A DNA stretch of 11,454 bases from Silvanigrellaceae bacterium (GCA_049423385.1 JBMSQQ010000102.1:1-11454), one strand, 5' to 3'; numbered from the stretch's first letter, positions 469-10,147 are shown. Notes: a model not told the origin generated them from the letters alone. A program made the numbers and translations.

Positions 469-1488
469 TCACAATGCCAGCAATGCTGCTCCCAATCCCC
501 CTGCAGAATCGCCCAGTTGGTGCTGATAGACGGGTACCCGGCTGTCGGGAAGGAAGGTATGATGCGAAAGCGCCTCGGAGAGCCCCTGATAGATGGATGG
601 CTGTAAACTCAGACCTCCGCCCAACACAAAGTAATGAGGGTCAAAAACAGAGGTCAGGCTGCCGAGGAATCGGGCCAGGTCGCTCCTGTACCGCGCCACC
701 ACAGCCATTGCTGCAGGGTCGGAGGCAGCTGCCTTTTCAAAGATTTCTTTCGCGGAAAGGGGCGCAGGCCCCAGCTGGCTGTAATGCCGTGTGGCCATCA
801 ATGACTCTATTCCAGGGCCCGACAAGTACTGCTCCGCACAACCTGACTGGCCACAATAGCACTGGTGACCATCACGGTAGAGGATGGTGTGTCCCAATTC
901 GCCACCGCCGCCACGCGAACCTTGGACCGTTCTGCCATTGATGACAATTCCACCACCACAACCGGTGCCAAGAATAATTCCCACAGACGTTTGCGAATGG
1001 ACACTCACACCGGTTTTCTGTTCATGCATCAGCCCTGCACCACAGAGAGCTTCAGCCAAGGCAAAACAGTTGGCATCGTTCTCAGCCCGCATGACCACCG
1101 ACGAAGGCAACTTTGCCTTGCGCCGAATGTCGCCCAACAGATCCTGGTTCACCAGAACCATCGTGTTGCCGTTGAGCATGCGGAATGTTTTGGGGTCAAT
1201 CGAGCCAGGAAGTCCAAGGCCGATCCCATGAAGATTTTTTTCATCAACACCGGCAGAGGACAAGGTCGAAGTGATCAGTCCCACCATTTTCTCAACGATG
1301 GCCTGATAACCTTTGTGCCGTTCGGTGGGTTCGCGCATTTTTGCAAGGACCTGGCCATGAAGATGGCCAGAAACGGGATGCGCGCATACGAAAGCATCAC
1401 CCGTCTTGCTCTGCGACGCTTCTTTTTCAAGGCGAAAAAGGGTGGCTTCGATCTTTGTTCCACCCACATCGAAACCCATCAGAAACAT
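469..1488 (-). CDS. ROK family sugar kinase (Mak/NagK-like)
   Basis: Motifs GFDVGGTK (phosphate-1), GLGLPG, ENDANCFALAE, ILGTGCGGG, and the Zn motif GELGH...CYCGQSGCAE. No N-terminal HTH. Start placed at ATG 1488, whose RBS GAGGG overlaps the pyrE stop; the ORF track extends to 1515. Confidence 0.92.
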   Translation of the reverse strand: MFLMGFDVGGTKIEATLFRLEKEASQSKTGDAFVCAHPVSGHLHGQVLAKMREPTERHKGYQAIVEKMVGLITSTLSSAGVDEKNLHGIGLGLPGSIDPKTFRMLNGNTMVLVNQDLLGDIRRKAKLPSSVVMRAENDANCFALAEALCGAGLMHEQKTGVSVHSQTSVGIILGTGCGGGIVINGRTVQGSRGGGGELGHTILYRDGHQCYCGQSGCAEQYLSGPGIESLMATRHYSQLGPAPLSAKEIFEKAAASDPAAMAVVARYRSDLARFLGSLTSVFDPHYFVLGGGLSLQPSIYQGLSEALSHHTFLPDSRVPVYQHQLGDSAGGLGAALLAL

Positions 1489-1498
1489 GTTTTTTCCC

Positions 1499-2167
1499 TC
1501 AATCAATTGAATCATTCATTGCGCTGAAGCCTTCCAGCCAGGCCAAGACTGTGCGCAGTTCGGACTGGGAGATCAAGCCCATGCCCTTGGCAACTTCAAG
1601 AATCTGCACTGTTTCAAACAGAGCCACAAACGGCAGATTGATGCTCTCGAATTTCCGGTGCGACGACGGTATCGCATGTGTCGTGACCGTCGTCGACATC
1701 ACCATCCGGGTATCCAGCTGACGCAAGACTTCAACCGACTTGAGCACGCTCTGACCGGTTGTCATCATGTCATCGACGACCACATGCGGTTTGCGCGGAT
1801 TGAATTCCCCTTCAACCATCTGTTGCAAACCGTGACCTTTTGGCTTTTGGCGCACATAAATGAATTCGCAATCCCATTGATTGGCAAGAGCCATGGCGGG
1901 CGCAATACCGGCGGTTGCCGTTCCGGCAAAAACAACATCGCGCGGAAGGCAGCCCAGATTTTTCAGCTCTGACTCAATTTTTTGGGCCCAGATCGTCACC
2001 AGATTCTTGCGCAGCACTGGATTCGTGAATGCGCGACGATGATCGAGATATATGGGTGCCTTCGCTCCACTCGACAAAACGAAGGGGCTGGAAGCATCGA
2101 CCTTGATGACACCATGATTGAAAAAAAGATCCACGACTGTGGATTCAGGATTTTTGCTGTTGGTCAT
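1499..2167 (-). CDS. pyrE: Orotate phosphoribosyltransferase
   Basis: Motifs FVLSSGAKAPIYLDHR, ATAGIA, flexible loop YVRQKPKGHG and PRPP loop VVVDDMMTTGQS. Start placed at MTNSK (2167), overlapping the upstream gene by 23 nt. Confidence 0.9.
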   Translation of the reverse strand: MTNSKNPESTVVDLFFNHGVIKVDASSPFVLSSGAKAPIYLDHRRAFTNPVLRKNLVTIWAQKIESELKNLGCLPRDVVFAGTATAGIAPAMALANQWDCEFIYVRQKPKGHGLQQMVEGEFNPRKPHVVVDDMMTTGQSVLKSVEVLRQLDTRMVMSTTVTTHAIPSSHRKFESINLPFVALFETVQILEVAKGMGLISQSELRTVLAWLEGFSAMNDSID

Positions 2168-3371
2168 TCCTGTTTTCCCGTGAAGAAAATTTAATACCCA
2201 GGCGTTGAGCACATTCACTTGCGAACTGGAGATTCCACATTGCAGCTGTTGCAACATGCACAACGTCTGCTCCTGCCTTCAAAAACGCTTCAAAATCGTC
2301 AACCGTGGTGCAGCCACCAACACCCACAAGCGCAAAACTTCTACTGTCGAGTCCCAAACTCCTGCGGCACCGGCTCAACTTTCCGATCATCTGGATCGCC
2401 TCATCGCGGATAGCAGCGCCACAGACTCCGCCATGTGCGGATCCGGATCCAAGTGCACGTTCACCTGCGGGAGTTACGATATTCGCACTCACCGTATTGA
2501 TCGCACTGATTCCATGCGCATATTTTGCAATCACTTCGACGGTTGACAAAATATTTTTTTCCGGGACCACGCCCAACTTGATGACAAGTCTCATTTCAGG
2601 AAAATCGGTCAATGCTTCGGACGCTGCGCGCACAGTTTCGGTGAGTGCTTTCAGGTCGGTGAAAATCGGCGCACCCGCCTCGTTCGGACAACTCACGTTC
2701 ATTTCGAGGAGGGAACCACCTGCAGCGCGAACGCATTGAGCGGCAAGCCTGGCAGTGGTGGACGTGTCGAGCAAAAAATCACTCCAGGGTCGGTTTTCCA
2801 GGCGAGAGCCCTGAAAACTCAGGACAGTCATCTTCCCTTGCGAAAAAGCACCCGGCAACAACCGGGAGAAATCCTGGCCCCACTCTTTTGGAGACAAACT
2901 GGGAACGCCAAAAGCATTGGTGATGCTCAGCCGTGACCTGAGCTCACTGTCGAGAAGGTCCTCGGCTCGAAGCGGAACCACTTCAACGGTTGAACGAAAG
3001 TTTTCTCCAGGGTTTGCATTGCGCAGCTGAAAATCGCATCCAACCAGCCTTTCGGGGCAAGCGGCTGAATCCTCATTTGAAAGGAGATTTTGGATTCTCA
3101 GGACATTGGGCCATGGATGACTCTGCCATGAACAGCTGCGCACCGTTTTATAAACCGGCATGCAAAAGCCAGCCTCCAGAGCAACATCAACGTAGGCTGA
3201 AGACAACAACGGCCCTGCCGGCATACCCAACGGAAGATGCAGCGGCACATCGAAAACTCCGAACTGCGGTGCCTGTTCAAAACGCACCACTGGAAACAGC
3301 CCATCCCTGTTCCAAACAGACGACGGGCCATTGCGCAGGTTCTCTTCGTAACTGGCCAGAGGATTATACAT
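2145..3371 (-). CDS. pyrD: FMN-dependent dihydroorotate dehydrogenase-like protein (class 1-like, catalytic Cys)
   Basis: Motifs PAGP, YKT (FMN-binding Lys), ITNAFG, EMNVSCPN (catalytic Cys loop), IKL, AINT, GGVCG and VGVGG. Directly upstream of pyrE. The ATG overlaps the upstream stop (TGATG). Dihydropyrimidine dehydrogenase subunits share these motifs, so the substrate rests partly on context. Confidence 0.78.
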   Translation of the reverse strand: MYNPLASYEENLRNGPSSVWNRDGLFPVVRFEQAPQFGVFDVPLHLPLGMPAGPLLSSAYVDVALEAGFCMPVYKTVRSCSWQSHPWPNVLRIQNLLSNEDSAACPERLVGCDFQLRNANPGENFRSTVEVVPLRAEDLLDSELRSRLSITNAFGVPSLSPKEWGQDFSRLLPGAFSQGKMTVLSFQGSRLENRPWSDFLLDTSTTARLAAQCVRAAGGSLLEMNVSCPNEAGAPIFTDLKALTETVRAASEALTDFPEMRLVIKLGVVPEKNILSTVEVIAKYAHGISAINTVSANIVTPAGERALGSGSAHGGVCGAAIRDEAIQMIGKLSRCRRSLGLDSRSFALVGVGGCTTVDDFEAFLKAGADVVHVATAAMWNLQFASECAQRLGIKFSSRENRNDQQQKS

Positions 3372-4387
3372 CAGGCGAGCCCCAACACCCGCCGACCGTT
3401 TTCGGTTGCAATTCGAATCAATTCCGCCGAGTCGTAAAAATGGGTGGCCTCGAGAAGCATCCTGAGTTCCACCATCGGGTCGCCATCAGCAAATGGTTTG
3501 TAGATGTCCGAGATATTGTCGGACCCGATGGCCACACACAATCCCGCAGGAATCATCTCGTCGATCGGTGTGATTGCATTGTGGGTCGGAGTCAGAACTT
3601 CGTTGCGCCGTGCATCCAGCCAGGCTCCAGGACATGCAACGAAACTCAATCCGGCATCATTGCAAAGTTTGTAGAGCTCTTGTCGATATGACTTTGGTTG
3701 GCAACCAATGCTGATGCCATGAACTGCGGTCACCTTGCCTTCCAGACCATGACGAATCACGGTTCGGGCAAGCTGTTCGGTTTCACGTTCATTTGGATCG
3801 TTGTTTTGATCGACGTGCACATGCACGCGCTTGCCCGTCGCCTTCGCAGCTGACAGAAGCACATCAAGATGTTCCTGCTCTCGTCCTCGATCTGCACCGG
3901 GCAGACCACCAATCACGTCGACGCTTTCCAGCGACTTCTCGAAGAATTGCCGCGCTTCCTCGTTCAAAACACCCTTGAGCGTTTGGCACGCAAGCACAAG
4001 TTTCATTTGCAATTGTTGGGACGCGTATTCTTTTGCACGCAAGGCTGCGTCGAGTGCACGGGTGCCAGCAACCGGGTCGCAGTCAATGAAAGTGAGTGCC
4101 AGACGCACACCGAATTCATGTTGCGCCCGCAGTGCGGATGTGATGTGTGCAAAATAGTCGTCTTCGCTGGCCGACTTCTTCCACGCATCAACCAACTGCC
4201 ACTTTTCCTGCAGCGGGCGTTCCACAACCGCGTCCAACGCGATTGATGATTGCCCCAAAACTGGCTGACCCATGGGCAGATCGGCCGGAGTCACCGAATA
4301 GGCCCTGTCGAAATGCGCATGCGCATTCACGAAACCGCCGGCGGAAATGATCTTTTGCCGCAACTGGGCCAATGGCATCCAGAACAT
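3371..4387 (-). CDS. Metal-dependent amidohydrolase, cytosine deaminase (CodA)-like barrel, substrate unknown
   Basis: Motifs FVNAHAHFD (HxH), HVHVDQ, VTAVHG and IGSDNISDIYKPF align with CodA HIHLD, DVHCDE, VTASH and FGHDDVFDPWYPL. Start is ATG 4387 (7 nt after GGAG) or ATG 4390 (overlapping the argG stop). Confidence 0.85.
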   Translation of the reverse strand: MFWMPLAQLRQKIISAGGFVNAHAHFDRAYSVTPADLPMGQPVLGQSSIALDAVVERPLQEKWQLVDAWKKSASEDDYFAHITSALRAQHEFGVRLALTFIDCDPVAGTRALDAALRAKEYASQQLQMKLVLACQTLKGVLNEEARQFFEKSLESVDVIGGLPGADRGREQEHLDVLLSAAKATGKRVHVHVDQNNDPNERETEQLARTVIRHGLEGKVTAVHGISIGCQPKSYRQELYKLCNDAGLSFVACPGAWLDARRNEVLTPTHNAITPIDEMIPAGLCVAIGSDNISDIYKPFADGDPMVELRMLLEATHFYDSAELIRIATENGRRVLGLA

Positions 4388-4389
4388 CA

Positions 4390-6051
4390 TCAAACTCCAT
4401 TCATCAGGGCTGGCTTTTGTTGCTCGCCACGCGCAGCAATGGGCTTGCGGGCCTGTGTTTTGAGCCGCTCGCAGATGTTCATCAAGACATCATATTCACT
4501 GACCAGCTGAACACCGTTGATGACGCTCCATTTGCGAATTTCCGTCCCATCTCGCACTTCAACGTTGTTGTTTTCAGGGCTCATCACATTGACGATGAGG
4601 TCAAAGCGGTTCTGCTTCAGCAGGTCGAGCAGGTTTGGCTTCTTGTTTGAATCCGAAACTTTGTAGACGCAAACGGCAGGCACGCCAGCCTTTTGCAGGA
4701 CCGCATGTGTGCCCTCGGTTGCAAAAAGAACAAATCCACTGTCGGCAAGCTTGGAAACCAATGGCAAAAACCGCTGCTTCTGCTCTGTGCTGCCAATCGA
4801 AATAAGTGCATAACGCTCTGTTTCACGGGCCATGCGCATCTGCATCGTGTAAATCTCGGTGAATGCAGCAGACGCATTCTGGTTGAACGCATTGCTCTTC
4901 ATGAACGTTGCCAGTTTTTCATCAAACAAACTGTTTGGAGTCTCAACAGCAACAGTTTCTGCACGCCCCTTGAACAGGCGCAACGTCACTGTTCCAGTCA
5001 CTTTTTCGTTCACGGCATCAACGTACATATTGAGGTTGTGCATCAGTGGTTCATACCATTGCGCACCATAGCAGAGGTAACCCCATTTCTGGTCAACAAG
5101 AGTCTTGAATTCGTTTTCCTGGCGGGTGCAGACGTATTTTTCGAGAGTCTCGTGCGCACGGACAATGATGGTTGCAGCCGGCGCTTCATAGATACCGCGA
5201 ACCTTCAATCCAACAACCCGATCCTCAATGTGGTGGGTCACACCAACACCATGGTTTGCACCCATCTCGTTCAACTGCGCAATGAGTGGTACAAGTCCCA
5301 TGTCCTGACCGTTCAGCTGAACGGGAAGCCCCTTGAGGAAGCCAATCGTGATCGTCGTCGGTTCGTGAGGAGTTTCCTCGATGGGCTTGCAGATCTGAAG
5401 AATATTCTTGAGAGGTGGAACGAGCGCGGGGTTTTCGATTTCGCCACCCTCTGCAGAGATTCCCCACATGTTGTCGTCGTAGCTGTAGGGTGAATCTGCA
5501 GTTTGTTTGACCGGTATGTTGTGCTGACGCGCGTATTCCAATTCTTCGTCGCGGCCCATTCCCCACTCGCGCACGGGTGCGATGATCTTCATTTCTGGAG
5601 CCAGCGTCAGGATGCTCCCTTCAAGCCGAACCTGATCGTTTCCTTTGCCTGTGCAGCCATGTGCAATGCAGTCGCAGCCTTCCGCGCGCGCAACATCGAC
5701 GGCAAGCTTCGCCAACAAGGGGCGACCCAGCGGTGTCGCAAGGTGATAGTCACCTTGATAACGCGCGTTTGCCTTGATTCCTTTGGCCAGGTACTCGTAG
5801 GCAAATTCGTTTTTCGCATCCACAACCACAGCCTTGATGGCTCCAAGGCGAAGCGCCTTTTGACGAATTTCCTCGAGGTTGTCTGCCTGCTGACCAATAT
5901 CGATGGTCAGGGCGATGACTTCTGCCTGGTATTCATCCTGAATCCATTTGAGCATCACGCTGGTGTCGAGTCCGCCCGAGTAAAGGAGAACCACTTTGCG
6001 GATTTCACCCTTGCGACCTTCATATGAGGAAACCTTCATGTAATTGTTCAT
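4390..6051 (-). CDS. argG: Argininosuccinate synthase with a C-terminal MGS-like (CarB allosteric-type) domain
   Basis: Motifs LLYSGGLDTS (PP-loop), TPLGRP, HGCTGKGNDQVR, APVREW, YSYDDNMWGISAEGG and EDRVVGLKVRGIYEAP. About 140 extra C-terminal residues include ATEGTHAVL, YKVS, PNLLDLLK, DLIVN and DGTEIR. Start at ATG 6051, with GGGAGGT 9 nt upstream. Confidence 0.92.
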   Translation of the reverse strand: MNNYMKVSSYEGRKGEIRKVVLLYSGGLDTSVMLKWIQDEYQAEVIALTIDIGQQADNLEEIRQKALRLGAIKAVVVDAKNEFAYEYLAKGIKANARYQGDYHLATPLGRPLLAKLAVDVARAEGCDCIAHGCTGKGNDQVRLEGSILTLAPEMKIIAPVREWGMGRDEELEYARQHNIPVKQTADSPYSYDDNMWGISAEGGEIENPALVPPLKNILQICKPIEETPHEPTTITIGFLKGLPVQLNGQDMGLVPLIAQLNEMGANHGVGVTHHIEDRVVGLKVRGIYEAPAATIIVRAHETLEKYVCTRQENEFKTLVDQKWGYLCYGAQWYEPLMHNLNMYVDAVNEKVTGTVTLRLFKGRAETVAVETPNSLFDEKLATFMKSNAFNQNASAAFTEIYTMQMRMARETERYALISIGSTEQKQRFLPLVSKLADSGFVLFATEGTHAVLQKAGVPAVCVYKVSDSNKKPNLLDLLKQNRFDLIVNVMSPENNNVEVRDGTEIRKWSVINGVQLVSEYDVLMNICERLKTQARKPIAARGEQQKPALMNGV

Positions 6052-6085
6052 CAGCGCTGGACCTCCCGCAAACAGAATTTCAGGC

Positions 6086-6111
6086 AAAAAAAAACCCGCT
6101 CAACGCGGGTT
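6086..6111 (-). terminator. Intrinsic terminator, possibly an attenuator, just upstream of argG
   Basis: The minus strand reads AACCCGC-GTTGA-GCGGGTT-TTTTTTT: a 7-bp stem, a 5-nt loop and 9 consecutive U after GCGGG. It ends 34 nt before the argG ATG. Confidence 0.85.
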
Positions 6112-6122
6112 AAAATTTAATA

Positions 6123-6182
6123 TCAGGTGGGGTTTGGAGTCCCTTCAGCATGCACGTCTTGAACAGCGAACACCACAGGCAT
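6123..6182 (-). other. Possible 19-aa leader ORF (MPVVFAVQDVHAEGTPNPT)
   Basis: ATG at 6182 with AAGGGG 9 nt upstream; TGA at 6125-6123, 11 nt before the terminator stem. Short enough to arise by chance. Confidence 0.3.
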
Positions 6183-6239: not shown

Positions 6240-7541
6240 TCAAGACGCCTTCTTGATGGACGCATCGTCTTTGGCTGCTTCCGTTGAGTTCTTTTGGTCA
6301 ACAGAAGGCACCGGAAGTGGGATCGATGACATGGGCGCAGGCTCAACCGCTGGGAACTGTGCCTTGATCTCGAGAATTTCGTCGAGGTTGTCGAAAAAGA
6401 TGTCGACAATTTCTGGATCAAAGTGGCTACCGCTGCAGTTGCGAAGCTCATCGAACACCTTGTCGATTGGCCATGATTCCTTGTAGACGCGCCGTGAACA
6501 GAGCGCATCGAAAACATCGGCAAGAGCAACAACCCGACCCTCTGCCGGGATGTCTTTGCCCTTCAGGCCACGTGGATATCCGGTTCCATCCCAACGTTCG
6601 TGATGAGTGTAAGCAATCACCGCACCCATCTGAAGGAATGGTGAATCGGCGCCACGCAAAACTTCATAGCCTTTCACCGTATGCAGTTTCATGATTTCAA
6701 ATTCTTCAGGAGTCAGCCGTCCTGGCTTCTTGAGAACGGCGTCTGGAGTCGAAATCTTTCCAACGTCATGCAACATGGCCGCCAGCCTCATGACTTCGCA
6801 GGCAGCATCATCGAAGCCCAATTGTCGATACAACAACACGCTGTAACGACTCATTCGTTCGATGTGTCCACCCGTGTCTGTGTCATGGTATTCCGACGCC
6901 TTCACGAATTTCTTCACTGTCTCAATGCGGGACTGGCGCAAATCCTGGGCCATGCGCAGATTTCTGAGCACCACGCCGCACTGGCTTGAAAGAGCGCGCA
7001 GATAGGATTCAACCTTGGCCGGAAACGGAGACACTTCACCGCTGAAGTTCTCACCCATCAGGTGGTTGATAAGCTGCAGGACCCCCAGAACGTTTCCGCG
7101 CGAGTCGCACATCGGGATCACCAGCATGGATCTGCTGCGATAATTGGTCATGATGTCGAATGACGGATTGAACGAAAAAGGAGACTCCGATGGCAGATTA
7201 TAAACATCCTGAATATTCAGGGTTTTTCTGGACGAAGCGGCAAATCCGGCAGCAGTCTTGAGGTCGATCGGCAGCGTGTAATTTTTCAGCGCTGCCTTGA
7301 CTCCGCGGGCCTCGAGCACCCGGTTTCGGGTCAGCACAAACCGAAGTTGGTTTCCATCCGCCTCGTAAACTGTGCACCCTTCGCAATTACCCATAATCAA
7401 AGCAGTATCTGCCATAAGGCTCAGCAGCTCACTGGCATCGTCCATCTCGCTGAGAGCCAAACCGCTTTTTACAAGCAGGTTGAGATAGTCGATTGAATCT
7501 TCAGCATCCTGGACGCCAGGATTTTGTTTGTTCTCGGCCAT
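6240..7541 (-). CDS. GAF + HD-GYP domain protein, probable cyclic dinucleotide (c-di-GMP) phosphodiesterase
   Basis: N-terminal GAF (AGFAASSRKTLNIQDVY...FNPSFD...YRSRSMLVIPM...VLGVLQLIN). HD-GYP motifs DTDTGGHIERM, LHDVGK, KPGRLTPEEF, HHERWDGTGYP, ADVFDAL and RVYK. GAGG RBS upstream. Confidence 0.93.
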   Translation of the reverse strand: MAENKQNPGVQDAEDSIDYLNLLVKSGLALSEMDDASELLSLMADTALIMGNCEGCTVYEADGNQLRFVLTRNRVLEARGVKAALKNYTLPIDLKTAAGFAASSRKTLNIQDVYNLPSESPFSFNPSFDIMTNYRSRSMLVIPMCDSRGNVLGVLQLINHLMGENFSGEVSPFPAKVESYLRALSSQCGVVLRNLRMAQDLRQSRIETVKKFVKASEYHDTDTGGHIERMSRYSVLLYRQLGFDDAACEVMRLAAMLHDVGKISTPDAVLKKPGRLTPEEFEIMKLHTVKGYEVLRGADSPFLQMGAVIAYTHHERWDGTGYPRGLKGKDIPAEGRVVALADVFDALCSRRVYKESWPIDKVFDELRNCSGSHFDPEIVDIFFDNLDEILEIKAQFPAVEPAPMSSIPLPVPSVDQKNSTEAAKDDASIKKAS

Positions 7542-7641: not shown

Positions 7642-7805
7642 GCCTGGTTGCGAACATTTCCTGACATGACACTTCGACACTTCCTTGCCGCCGGTGAGAA
7701 ACCTGCCAAGCCACTTGTCTTTTTCGCCTGATACGGACTATGTAGGGGGCGTTCCGCAGACTCCGAACTTCACCTGATTTTTTTTTCCTCCCGACGAGGT
7801 GATTT

Positions 7806-9416
7806 ATGATTGCGAGATACAGCCGCCCGGAAATGTCCAAGCTTTGGTCCGAAGATTCAAAATACATCTCATGGTCTCGGGTTGAACGCGCACATTTGGA
7901 GGCCCTTGTGGAACGCCGGGGAGTTCCCGCGGCAGTTCTTGCAGCATTCGACAGCGCCATCAAAAAAACCAACGCGGGCGACTATCTCAAACGCGAAGAG
8001 GAAACCGGACACGACGTGATTGCCTACGTTGCGGAGGTGGGCGAAGCCATGGGCGACGCCGGACGCTGGCTGCATCAAGGCCTCACAAGTTCGGACGTGC
8101 TCGACACTGCCTTGAGTTTGCGCCTTGGTGAAAGCCTTGAACTGCTGCGCAAACCTCTGTTTGCCTTGCGGAAGGCTCTTGCCAAGCAAGCCTTCAATCA
8201 CGTCAACACGCCCATCATGGGTCGCACCCACGGCATACATGCCGAACCTTTGTCGTTTGGCCAGGTCCTTGCGGGACATTTTGAAGATTTTCAGCGCGCA
8301 CATGTTGAACTTGTTGAAACACAAAAGCTCTGTTCAACCGGAAAAATGTCGGGTGCCGTTGGCCAATATTCACAGTTGACTCCGGAACACGAAGCACACG
8401 TTCTGAACAAGCTGGGTCTCACGCCCGAGCCGATTGCGACGCAGGTCATCCCGCGCGATCGCATCCTGCGCGTTGGTCATGCCTGTGAAAGTCTCGCCAA
8501 CGCCATCGAACGATTTGCGGTCAACATGCGTCATTGGGCCCGCACGGAATTACAGGAAGTCATCGAACCCTTTGGCAGCAAGCAAAAAGGCAGTTCCGCG
8601 ATGCCGCACAAAAAGAATCCGGTGCTCGCGGAAAATTTGTCAGGACTCGCACGCTCCATCCGTGGGTATGTGCAGATGCTCGGACAAAACACCGCGCTCT
8701 GGCATGAGCGGGACATCTCCCACAGCAGCGTCGAACGACTGGCTTTGCCCGACATGTTCGTCACCCTGGACTTCATGACTGCGCGCTGCGCAGACCTCAT
8801 CGAAAAAATGGTTGTTCAACCCGATGTGATGAGACGCAATCTTGAGCGCCTGGGTGGACTTTGGGCCAGTCAATCGGTCCTCACCCAACTCACAAATTCA
8901 GGAATGAACCGCACGGCTGCATACGAACTTGTGCAAAAAATCGCGCTGCCGCTCAACATGCAATCTGCGCGGGAAACCCTTCCCCCCGATGCGTTTCTCA
9001 AGGCACTGGAAGCGCAGGCTTCGGTTGTCGACCTCGTTGGCAAGGACAACCTGCGCGGATTGTTCAATCTTGAGCGTTTTCTGGCCCAGACACCGACCCG
9101 GTTCCTCACAGTCTTTGGAGTGACGCCGGACGAGATCGCACGGGTTCATGGCGGACGGGTGGATGCCAGCACGGTCCCCGCGCTTCAAAAAATCCTGAGA
9201 GTCACAGTTGCCTTGCACGCAGACGTGCTCGACACCGAGGCCAAAACAATTGAAGAGCATATGCATTCGCAAGGTCTCAGTGCCCGCCTGAAACGATCGA
9301 AAGTTTTTACAATCAACGTACCAAATGAAGATGAAACAGCCTCGCTGTTGGGTTATGTCTCATCGGTCTTGCGCAATGAGGTCATGGAATCCATTCACAT
9401 GGAGGTCATTCAATGA
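7806..9416 (+). CDS. purB: Adenylosuccinate lyase fused to a C-terminal PurS-like domain
   Basis: Motifs MIARYSRPEM, HQGLTSSD, MGRTHGIHAEP, GKMSGAVG, GSSAMPHKKNP and WHERDISHSSVER. The last ~75 aa (RVTVALHADVLDTEAKTI...SKVFTI...VLRNEVMESIHMEV) match the PurS pattern. RBS GAGGTG. Confidence 0.93.
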   Translation: MIARYSRPEMSKLWSEDSKYISWSRVERAHLEALVERRGVPAAVLAAFDSAIKKTNAGDYLKREEETGHDVIAYVAEVGEAMGDAGRWLHQGLTSSDVLDTALSLRLGESLELLRKPLFALRKALAKQAFNHVNTPIMGRTHGIHAEPLSFGQVLAGHFEDFQRAHVELVETQKLCSTGKMSGAVGQYSQLTPEHEAHVLNKLGLTPEPIATQVIPRDRILRVGHACESLANAIERFAVNMRHWARTELQEVIEPFGSKQKGSSAMPHKKNPVLAENLSGLARSIRGYVQMLGQNTALWHERDISHSSVERLALPDMFVTLDFMTARCADLIEKMVVQPDVMRRNLERLGGLWASQSVLTQLTNSGMNRTAAYELVQKIALPLNMQSARETLPPDAFLKALEAQASVVDLVGKDNLRGLFNLERFLAQTPTRFLTVFGVTPDEIARVHGGRVDASTVPALQKILRVTVALHADVLDTEAKTIEEHMHSQGLSARLKRSKVFTINVPNEDETASLLGYVSSVLRNEVMESIHMEVIQ

Positions 9417-10147
9417 CCAGAAAGAACGCGGCAGTTCTTCAATTCCCGGGAACAAACTGTGACCAGGACACCTTGCGGTGGCTGGCTCGAAACCTCGACC
9501 TCGATGTCTCCTTCGTACGTTCACAAGAAGACATCGAAAAACGCCCCCCTGGACACACTTCGGTGATCATTCTCCCAGGGGGATTTTCTTTTGGTGACTA
9601 TTTGCGTGCAGGCGCCCTTGCAGCCCGCTCTCCATTGATGGACTGGGTTCGTCGGGAAGCAGCTGCCGGCGTTGCTGTTCTGGGCATTTGCAATGGATTC
9701 CAAATACTGTGTGAATCAGGATTGCTTCCAGGTGCGCTCGCTCTCAACACGATTCGCCAACACGTTCATGAATTTGTAACGATTCACGTCGAAATGTCCC
9801 TGTCATCGCCTTGGGCACCCAACCTGACATCCGGACGTTTGCTCACCCTGCCGATTTCATGTGGCATGGGAAATTTCATTGCACCCAGGAAAGAAGAAGG
9901 TTTCCGCACCTTGTTCCGTTACACGCAAAACATTCTTGGCAGCACCGAGAGTATTGCGGGCATTTCGAACCCCGAGGGAAATATTGTTGGAATGATGCCA
10001 CACCCCGAGCGTGCAAGTGATCCTGTGCTCGGTGCCACGGATGGATTGTTGATGCTCGACGCTCTCGCCGAGCGGCTGAATATTCCTGTGCGCCCCGGAA
10101 GCCCGTTGGCCATCTGGCGCGAAACCAAGGGAATACACGTTCACTGA
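9413..10147 (+). CDS. purQ: FGAM synthase glutaminase subunit PurQ
   Basis: Motifs [29 protein letters not shown] (nucleophile Cys) and GMMPHPER (His/Glu). ATGA overlap with the purB-purS stop. Confidence 0.95.

Follow-up and report, generated by a model that had tools for sequence, protein, structure and literature searches.

The window analysed here is contig C102, 11,454 nucleotides (nt) in its full length, of the Silvanigrellaceae metagenome-assembled genome (MAG) GCA_049423385.1, an assembly of 3.47 Mb in 183 contigs that is 90.6% complete. The family assignment, with the class Oligoflexia, agrees with the source names of close homologues and of related loci. It carries four minus-strand genes head to tail, abutting or overlapping, and the subject of this report is the pyrimidine route that they may encode. 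The first gene encodes an argininosuccinate synthetase with a C-terminal MGS-like domain, ArgG-MGS (open reading frame (ORF) 6087..4390, 565 amino acids (aa); likely ATG at 6051, gene 4390..6051). It is followed by the gene of a PRK06886-family amidohydrolase (ORF 4393..3371, gene 3371..4390; 340 aa), by that of a divergent, class-1-like DHO_dh-like protein (3371..2145; 408 aa) and by a divergent pyrE-like gene (ORF 2263..1499, 254 aa; likely ATG at 2167, gene 1499..2167). At the junction between argG and the amidohydrolase gene the stop TGA (4392-4390) shares one base with an ATG (4390-4388), and a further ATG lies at 4387. The amidohydrolase stop and the pyrD-like start are joined in a TGATG at 3373-3369. 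The pyrE ATG at 2167, which is supported by homology and has AGGA immediately upstream, lies 23 nt ahead of the pyrD-like stop at 2145. These overlaps suggest translational coupling of the operon genes. An earlier note on this DNA, made from the sequence alone, had described the same abutting and overlapping layout, which the junctions confirm, and a window without argH, pyrB and pyrC; family-model searches of the window proteins likewise found none of these three genes in the window.

The ArgG part of the first protein (approximately 4816-5997) scores above the curated equivalog cut-offs, with 502 bits for NF001770 (cut-off 334) and 459 bits for TIGR00032 (cut-off 268). Residues 31-425 align without large gaps to residues 2-395 of the T. 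thermophilus argininosuccinate synthetase 1J1Z. The blocks YSGGLDTS, GKGNDQVR and RG.YE.P are retained in this alignment; they include the SGGLDTS ATP-pyrophosphatase motif and blocks that we take to be citrulline-binding. The approximately 140 extra C-terminal residues (approximately 4501-4770) form an MGS-like domain (PF02142, 56 bits) that matches CarB positions 914-1050 (E 2.5e-12) and the allosteric domain of human CPS1 (2YVQ). The equivalog scores, the alignment to 1J1Z and the PF02142 match bear out the earlier description of an intact ArgG with an MGS domain, and the protein is predicted to ligate citrulline and aspartate with consumption of ATP.

The amidohydrolase passes the cut-off of one family only, NF005365 (PRK06886, 'hypothetical protein'; 371 bits, cut-off 340), a family without assigned function. 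No dihydroorotase (DHOase) models are among its NCBIfam matches. A profile of 14 sequences gave AtzC (2QT3/4CQB, E 5e-29) as the best match in the PDB, with cytosine deaminases next. The AlphaFold2 (AF2) model, with a predicted local distance difference test (pLDDT) value of 85.5, is a barrel-only (beta/alpha)8 structure, and its top Foldseek matches are 5-methylcytosine deaminase/CodA with a template modelling (TM) score of 0.80 and AtzC with a TM score of 0.72; the Foldseek matches listed include no entry with dihydroorotase in its title. AtzC and CodA, which had been guessed as relatives before, are the closest solved relatives by profile and by fold. The metal-ligand positions H25 and H27 (HxH), H193, H225 and D292 are invariant in the 14 sequences, and the presence of HxH, His, His and Asp on a barrel with TM scores of 0.72-0.80 places the protein in the mononuclear CodA/AtzC subtype. 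The motif at the third His is H193-V-D-Q196, in which Gln196 is invariant (14/14); the AtzC equivalent is HIHD. One invariant Gln of the amidohydrolase aligns with a Gln of AtzC and would correspond to the Gln of CodA that contacts the ring lactam. An identity as cytosine deaminase was rejected, since the cytosine-deaminase models give 76-91 bits against cut-offs of 403-483.

The DHO_dh-like protein matches PF01180 with 55 bits (cut-off 27) over profile positions 121-275, the C-terminal half only, and it falls under all NCBIfam PyrD cut-offs (best NF005574, 61 bits against 269). It carries an insertion at approximately residues 95-145. The family alignment retains YKTVR, SI(T/S)N.FGVPS, N.SCPNE and INT.SA, and K75, N152, N225-S-C228-P-N230 and N292 are invariant in 17 of 17 sequences; from the class 1 enzymes these residues are presumed to be the flavin mononucleotide (FMN)-binding Lys, the substrate Asn residues and the catalytic Cys in the SCPN loop. 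The AF2 model (pLDDT 83.5) matches dihydroorotate dehydrogenase (DHODH) and dihydropyrimidine dehydrogenase (DPD) barrels with TM scores to the target of 0.68-0.77. Sequence and model together point to a distinct, divergent subfamily of dihydroorotate dehydrogenase. The PyrE-like protein reaches 88 bits with TIGR00336 (cut-off 107), and 4 of 14 control genomes are likewise under this cut-off. Its best PDB matches are all orotate phosphoribosyltransferases (OPRTs), with 3M3H (E 1.4e-27) aligned nearly at full length over residues 16-211. The DHO_dh-like protein is the sole DHO_dh above cut-off and the PyrE-like gene the sole one of its kind in the genome; no further copy of either was found beyond those of the operon.

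Elsewhere in the genome, carA, carB and the gene of ornithine carbamoyltransferase (OTC) are contiguous on contig C11 in one operon, pyrF is present on contig C140 where it adjoins purK, and a divergent arginine-deiminase-like gene is also present. No pyrB was found in the genome; the sole carbamoyltransferase is the OTC, which has 384 bits with the OTC model and 140 bits with the aspartate carbamoyltransferase (ATCase) model (cut-off 237). Neither argH, for which the best matches are aspartase and purB, nor argB or argC was found in the genome. Four Amidohydro_1 proteins were detected, namely a TRZ/ATZ-type hydrolase, HutI, the operon enzyme and a 591-aa allantoinase/DHOase-like protein, and no pyrC-type dihydroorotase in the genome scored above cut-off. 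The 591-aa protein, encoded on contig C78, has 176 bits with TIGR00857 (cut-off 279) and 213 bits with an allantoinase model and passes no cut-off; its gene adjoins a CoA-transferase gene and not pyrimidine genes. Because argH, argB and argC were not found, the OTC and ArgG are without an arginine pathway to serve. By its gene content the organism appears able to make carbamoyl phosphate, citrulline and argininosuccinate, but to be without a known enzyme that uses argininosuccinate, and the enzymes that supply dihydroorotate appear to be missing.

We put at roughly 60% the probability that the operon encodes a route to uridine monophosphate (UMP) via argininosuccinate, bypassing PyrB (aspartate carbamoyltransferase) and PyrC (dihydroorotase). 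That the ArgG-MGS and amidohydrolase pair replaces PyrB and PyrC in some manner, with the variants discussed below summed, is likely; that one enzyme converts argininosuccinate to dihydroorotate and ornithine is probable, with moderate confidence. In the proposed route CarAB and OTC would form citrulline, which ArgG-MGS would join to aspartate with ATP to give argininosuccinate. In this compound the ureido carbon is bonded to the aspartate nitrogen, and the N-C-N-aspartate skeleton of the pyrimidine ring would thus already be present. Argininosuccinate cyclises spontaneously to anhydrides. The PRK06886 amidohydrolase would act on argininosuccinate or on its six-membered cyclic form to yield dihydroorotate. 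Ring closure would take place from the free guanidino nitrogen onto the beta-carboxylate, and oxygen would substitute the ornithine nitrogen at C2, with ornithine leaving much as isopropylamine leaves the ring amidine on which AtzC acts. By arithmetic the atoms balance, argininosuccinate (C10H18N4O6) being the sum of dihydroorotate (C5H6N2O4) and ornithine (C5H12N2O2), so that the split takes up no net water. The DHO_dh-like enzyme, PyrE and the unlinked PyrF would complete UMP, and ornithine would re-enter the first step, carrying the carbamoyl group catalytically. The occurrence of carAB, OTC and argG without argB, argC and argH would be explained, because OTC would recycle the ornithine. 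Nucleotide or feedback control of the new committed step would come from the CarB-type allosteric domain on ArgG.

The gene neighbourhood is widely conserved. A pattern scan in which each species was represented by a single genome gave 387 stretches with a relative of the amidohydrolase, of which the best 80 loci, from 80 species, were kept. Neighbours up to 7 kb away from the amidohydrolase were counted by tblastn, the queries being taken from the window and four of these loci; many loci end early. Among the 80 loci ArgG was found in 63, the MGS tail in 64, DHO_dh in 47, PyrE in 37, PyrF in 17 and a DDAH-like gene in 8. By Pfam, the operon of locus L046 comprises ArgG-MGS, the amidohydrolase, a divergent DHO_dh, a phosphoribosyltransferase (PRTase) and an orotidine monophosphate (OMP) decarboxylase. 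The same order is found in L066 and L053 but with canonical DHO_dh (217 and 233 bits, respectively); the ORF in the PyrE position of L053 is without a Pfam match and was called by tblastn. The order in L085 and L098 is ArgG-MGS, DDAH-like gene, amidohydrolase. In L094, a closed Roizmanbacteria chromosome of 1.1 Mb, pyrF and a DHO_dh ORF adjoin the pair. The latter ORF (633 aa, 3617-5518) combines a DHO_dh domain with a weak match of PRTase type at its C-terminal end (PF24390, 25.6 bits, cut-off 27), and it may be a DHO_dh-PRTase fusion.

A chance neighbourhood, in which an ordinary argG, a cytosine-deaminase salvage gene and pyrD-pyrE lie side by side, would agree with the automatic source names, which give cytosine deaminase for the hydrolase. 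It is contradicted by the synteny counts, with ArgG near the amidohydrolase in 63 of 80 loci, and by the low cytosine-deaminase scores, the overlapping genes and the MGS fusion found in 32 of 40 genomes, and we regard it as scarcely credible. The adjacency of ArgG-MGS and the amidohydrolase is kept across distant lineages, in operons with pyrD, pyrE and pyrF. Records titled 'Pseudomonadales' or 'Gammaproteobacteria' (L046, L047, L052, L056, L070, L097 and others) come from genomes of 0.8-1.5 Mb, and their amidohydrolases nest among those of Patescibacteria in a quick tree. Because of this nesting the labels were treated as unreliable, and of the Gammaproteobacteria only L043 and L075 (with pyrB) were counted as a separate lineage.

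Whole-genome profiles were made for 40 of the 80 genomes, picked by hand for long loci and taxonomic spread, not at random, and mostly Patescibacteria. ArgG-MGS, scored as a match extending into the MGS tail, was present in 32 of the 40. pyrB was above cut-off in two genomes (G032 and G063) and in none of the 32 with ArgG-MGS. TIGR00857 dihydroorotase matches with E<=1e-5 were obtained in nine genomes, four of them with ArgG-MGS, i.e. 28 of the 32 had none; in the control all 14 reference genomes, E. coli included, were detected. The nine matches were real-looking in G032, G063, G036 and G057 (none with ArgG-MGS), trivial fragments in two cases, and of Silvanigrellaceae type in three (138-143 bits in G065, G069 and G070, out of eight Silvanigrellaceae-type genomes among the 40). 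argH was above cut-off in 11 of the 40 genomes and absent in 26 of the 32 with ArgG-MGS. pyrF was found in 34 and DHO_dh in 38. Two genomes with both ArgG-MGS and argH (G043 and G066) have a second, plain argG directly adjoining argH, which fits separate enzymes, a plain ArgG-ArgH pair for arginine and ArgG-MGS for the bypass route. At least 7 of the 40 genomes have a canonical PyrD (217-245 bits) inside the cluster or close to it. Since canonical PyrD accompanies the pair in several operons, dihydroorotate would be the simplest product passed on, and the option raised in the earlier note that an ornithine-bearing ring is oxidised first is disfavoured.

Among relatives of the present organism the pattern follows family borders. 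The set consists of 31 genomes, this MAG and 30 others, with 19 in the Silvanigrellaceae and 12 in other families. The PRK06886 amidohydrolase is above cut-off in 19/19 Silvanigrellaceae and 0/12 of the others, pyrB in 0/19 and 4/12, respectively. Two more genomes outside the family have matches to the pyrB model under the cut-off (227 and 180 bits). pyrF was found in 19/19 Silvanigrellaceae and in 8/12 of the others, including all six genomes with pyrB-type matches. argH is above cut-off in 3/19 Silvanigrellaceae and in 0/13 genomes of the genus. As kin are not independent, the Silvanigrellaceae counts represent one family and not 19 separate events. The bypass of PyrB and PyrC that the earlier note had read from the window is supported by every genomic test it proposed: in this genome pyrB, a pyrC-type dihydroorotase and argH were not found whereas carAB, OTC and pyrF were, and the co-occurrence and synteny counts point the same way. 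The chemistry is a prediction.

Several observations weigh against the proposed route. All of its steps are inferred from genes and sequence. The position of the catalytic Glu of CodA (HxxE) is presumably taken by the invariant Gln of the amidohydrolase, which makes the acid-base chemistry of the proposed reaction less certain. argH is present in 6 of the 32 ArgG-MGS genomes. Most of the genomes are incomplete MAGs, and the 40 come without completeness figures. The amidohydrolase is also found in G032 and G063, which have pyrB and pyrC above cut-offs and no ArgG-MGS, and in the Melainabacteria G036 and G057, which have plain ArgG, argH, DHOase-like matches (229-255 bits) and carbamoyltransferase matches (159-170 bits), and thus likely the canonical genes. 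Two Bacteroidia and Blattabacterium likewise have it but no ArgG-MGS. In such genomes it may use argininosuccinate from plain ArgG or have another role. The closed chromosomes of Blattabacterium cuenoti (L048 and L092, genomes G035 and G055; 0.56-0.59 Mb) encode the amidohydrolase, plain ArgG, CarB, canonical PyrD and PyrF. They have no pyrB above cut-off, no TIGR00857 match and no argH at E<=1e-30, and their amidohydrolase is without pyr neighbours.

The C78 protein is a further point of this kind, as it could cyclise carbamoyl-aspartate. In such a two-step bypass the amidohydrolase would cut the guanidino C-N(delta) bond of argininosuccinate to give N-carbamoyl-aspartate and ornithine, and a separate enzyme, here the C78 protein, would close the ring. 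The presence of this protein, with its TIGR00857 and allantoinase scores, and the 138-143-bit matches in three Silvanigrellaceae-type genomes are in favour of two steps. The other five Silvanigrellaceae-type genomes (G031, G064, G066, G067 and G068) have no comparable TIGR00857 match, the C78 gene lies beside a CoA-transferase gene, and 28 of the 32 ArgG-MGS genomes are without a match by a search that detected all controls. The two-step variant is unlikely.

The source of citrulline in small genomes is another difficulty for the proposed route. OTC and ArcA were not found in most of the small genomes and no citrulline source is seen there, and CarB was not found in any of five small genomes tested, in which the sole matches were MGS tails. 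ArcA as a general source of citrulline was rejected, being confined to the Silvanigrellaceae-type genomes, in a divergent form, and to one Saccharibacteria-type genome (G053). Where Patescibacteria lack CarB or OTC, citrulline taken up from outside would supply the pair. Six genomes (G044, G048, G050, G051, G058 and G060) have a short PF02274/DDAH-type gene immediately next to ArgG-MGS, and such an in-cluster gene is a possible source of citrulline, with a feed from arginine-type guanidines conceivable in these clusters. The DDAH/arginine-deiminase-superfamily gene of the Saccharibacteria-type clusters encodes 267 aa (L085 7195-7998, L098 7179-7982). Alternatively, ArgG-MGS might take another ureido donor or keep argininosuccinate bound, and the amidohydrolase might strip ammonia or an amine from another guanidino-succinate to give dihydroorotate. 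The lack of OTC, ArcA and CarB in most small genomes with the pair would agree with this, as would the relatives of the amidohydrolase, which are mostly deaminases. The ArgG part, however, is well above its equivalog cut-offs and aligns with the T. thermophilus enzyme including the blocks presumed to bind citrulline, carAB-OTC is present in this genome, and DDAH-like genes of a citrulline-making family lie inside Saccharibacteria-type clusters, so that another donor is very improbable.

Two genomes of another family (G024 and G027, family f5) have a strong OMP-decarboxylase-family match (181-190 bits) without pyrB or the PRK06886 cluster, and such a gene set also speaks for import. Dihydroorotate, orotate or carbamoyl-aspartate would then be taken up and PyrD, PyrE and PyrF alone would serve pyrimidine synthesis, the pair being used for salvage of arginine, citrulline or nitrogen and linked to these genes for regulation only. 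A host-dependent life and a small genome are common among the holders, and the amidohydrolase without ArgG-MGS occurs in genomes bearing pyrB, both of which speak for import. Against it, the genus keeps carAB-OTC and ArgG without argB, argC and argH, leaving argininosuccinate without a known fate, the order ArgG-MGS, amidohydrolase, PyrD, PyrE, PyrF is kept across distant lineages, and G043 and G066 hold a separate plain argG-argH pair for arginine. We consider import improbable and retain synthesis through argininosuccinate as the preferred reading.

The remaining genes of the window encode a ROK kinase, a GAF-HD protein, PurB-PurS, PurQ and PurL. The ROK-family sugar kinase gene (469-1515, minus strand) shares 17 nt with the end of pyrE, and the gene of the GAF-HD (HD-GYP-like) protein (6240-7541, minus strand) lies upstream of the argG leader. 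On the plus strand purB (7806-9416) encodes a C-terminal PurS domain (PF02700, residues 465-534, E 1.6e-6) and is thus a purB-purS fusion; it is followed by purQ (9413-10147) and by purL from 10158.

The argG leader contains a terminator-like hairpin followed by a T-run (6093..6111, minus strand), 42 nt upstream of the argG ATG, which may terminate the upstream gene or act as an attenuator in the leader. With E<=1, no Rfam family matched anywhere in the window, and the leader is therefore no known riboswitch or attenuator. A motif of 23 nt at 6119..6141 (minus strand) has a partner copy in the purB leader at 7759-7781 (plus strand), as the earlier note had observed. The two copies are identical at 19 of 23 bases (83%) and have the same orientation relative to their own operons. 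The motif emerged only with mismatches allowed; the exact words of at least 9 bases common to both leaders are a single T-run. Across the 3.47 Mb of the genome its core is matched exactly by the two window copies only, the next-best match (contig C99, 2 mismatches) lies inside an ORF, and no copy with 3 or fewer mismatches was found upstream of argG in 24 related loci (L022-L045), some of which stop short of the leader. A role as the mark of a regulon was rejected on these counts.

The six steps of pyrimidine synthesis are, to our knowledge, taught as a universal pathway, and genome surveys take PyrB and PyrC as indicators of nucleotide autonomy. No description of the proposed route, of the ArgG-MGS fusion or of a PRK06886 function was found in full-text searches of the literature, which covered few subscription journals. 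On present evidence this would be a new pathway assembled from known folds. The odds are slightly better than even that it constitutes a second natural pyrimidine route, with ornithine as carbamoyl carrier, ArgG-MGS as the nucleotide-regulated committed step and a CodA/AtzC-type enzyme splitting argininosuccinate, in Silvanigrellaceae, many Patescibacteria and perhaps Blattabacterium. If true, it would add a new enzyme reaction, give a function to the widespread 'hypothetical' PRK06886 family and to the ArgG-MGS fusion, and account for orphan carAB-OTC-argG genes where argH is lacking. The view of how far Patescibacteria and some endosymbionts depend metabolically on others would change, and many 'nucleotide-auxotrophic' ultrasmall bacteria would make pyrimidine rings from citrulline or arginine of the host and aspartate. 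E. coli already makes argininosuccinate, and the hydrolase alone might therefore rescue pyrB or pyrC mutants.

Among known enzymes, AtzC (N-isopropylammelide isopropylaminohydrolase) has the same barrel as the amidohydrolase with aligned HxH, His, His and Asp ligand positions, and its displacement of an alkylamine from a ring amidine is the type of reaction proposed here. The identity is approximately 25%, and the profile of the 340-aa protein aligns to AtzC residues 54-353 of 403, which indicates that it is without the AtzC N-terminal extension. The two also differ in the motif after the third His, HVDQ here and HIHD in AtzC, and in substrate, which would be an amino-acid-bearing dihydropyrimidine in contrast to the triazine of AtzC. 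CodA/5-methylcytosine deaminase (1K6W, 4R7W) is the nearest fold (TM 0.80) and of the same superfamily subtype. However, the amidohydrolase is under every curated cytosine-deaminase cut-off, has an invariant Gln at what we take to be the Glu position of CodA, and has ArgG-MGS and pyrDEF as genomic partners instead of codB-type salvage genes. The tail of ArgG resembles the allosteric (MGS-like) domain of CarB and CPS1, but here this domain is fused to ArgG.

The urea or ornithine cycle (OTC, ArgG, ArgH and arginase) is similar to the proposed route in that ornithine is carbamoylated, joined to aspartate and regenerated as carrier. ArgH and arginase release fumarate and urea, whereas the proposed hydrolase would retain the aspartate skeleton and release dihydroorotate, and ArgH was not found in the searched genomes of the genus. 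With the canonical pyrimidine pathway (CarAB and PyrB-PyrF) the route would in this genome share its start, carbamoyl phosphate from CarAB. Between start and ending no PyrB or PyrC was found here; the carbamoyl group would be carried on ornithine as citrulline, at the cost of one extra ATP at ArgG, and the predicted intermediate is argininosuccinate in place of carbamoyl-aspartate. The ending, from dihydroorotate through orotate and OMP to UMP, would be the same and would use the same enzyme families.

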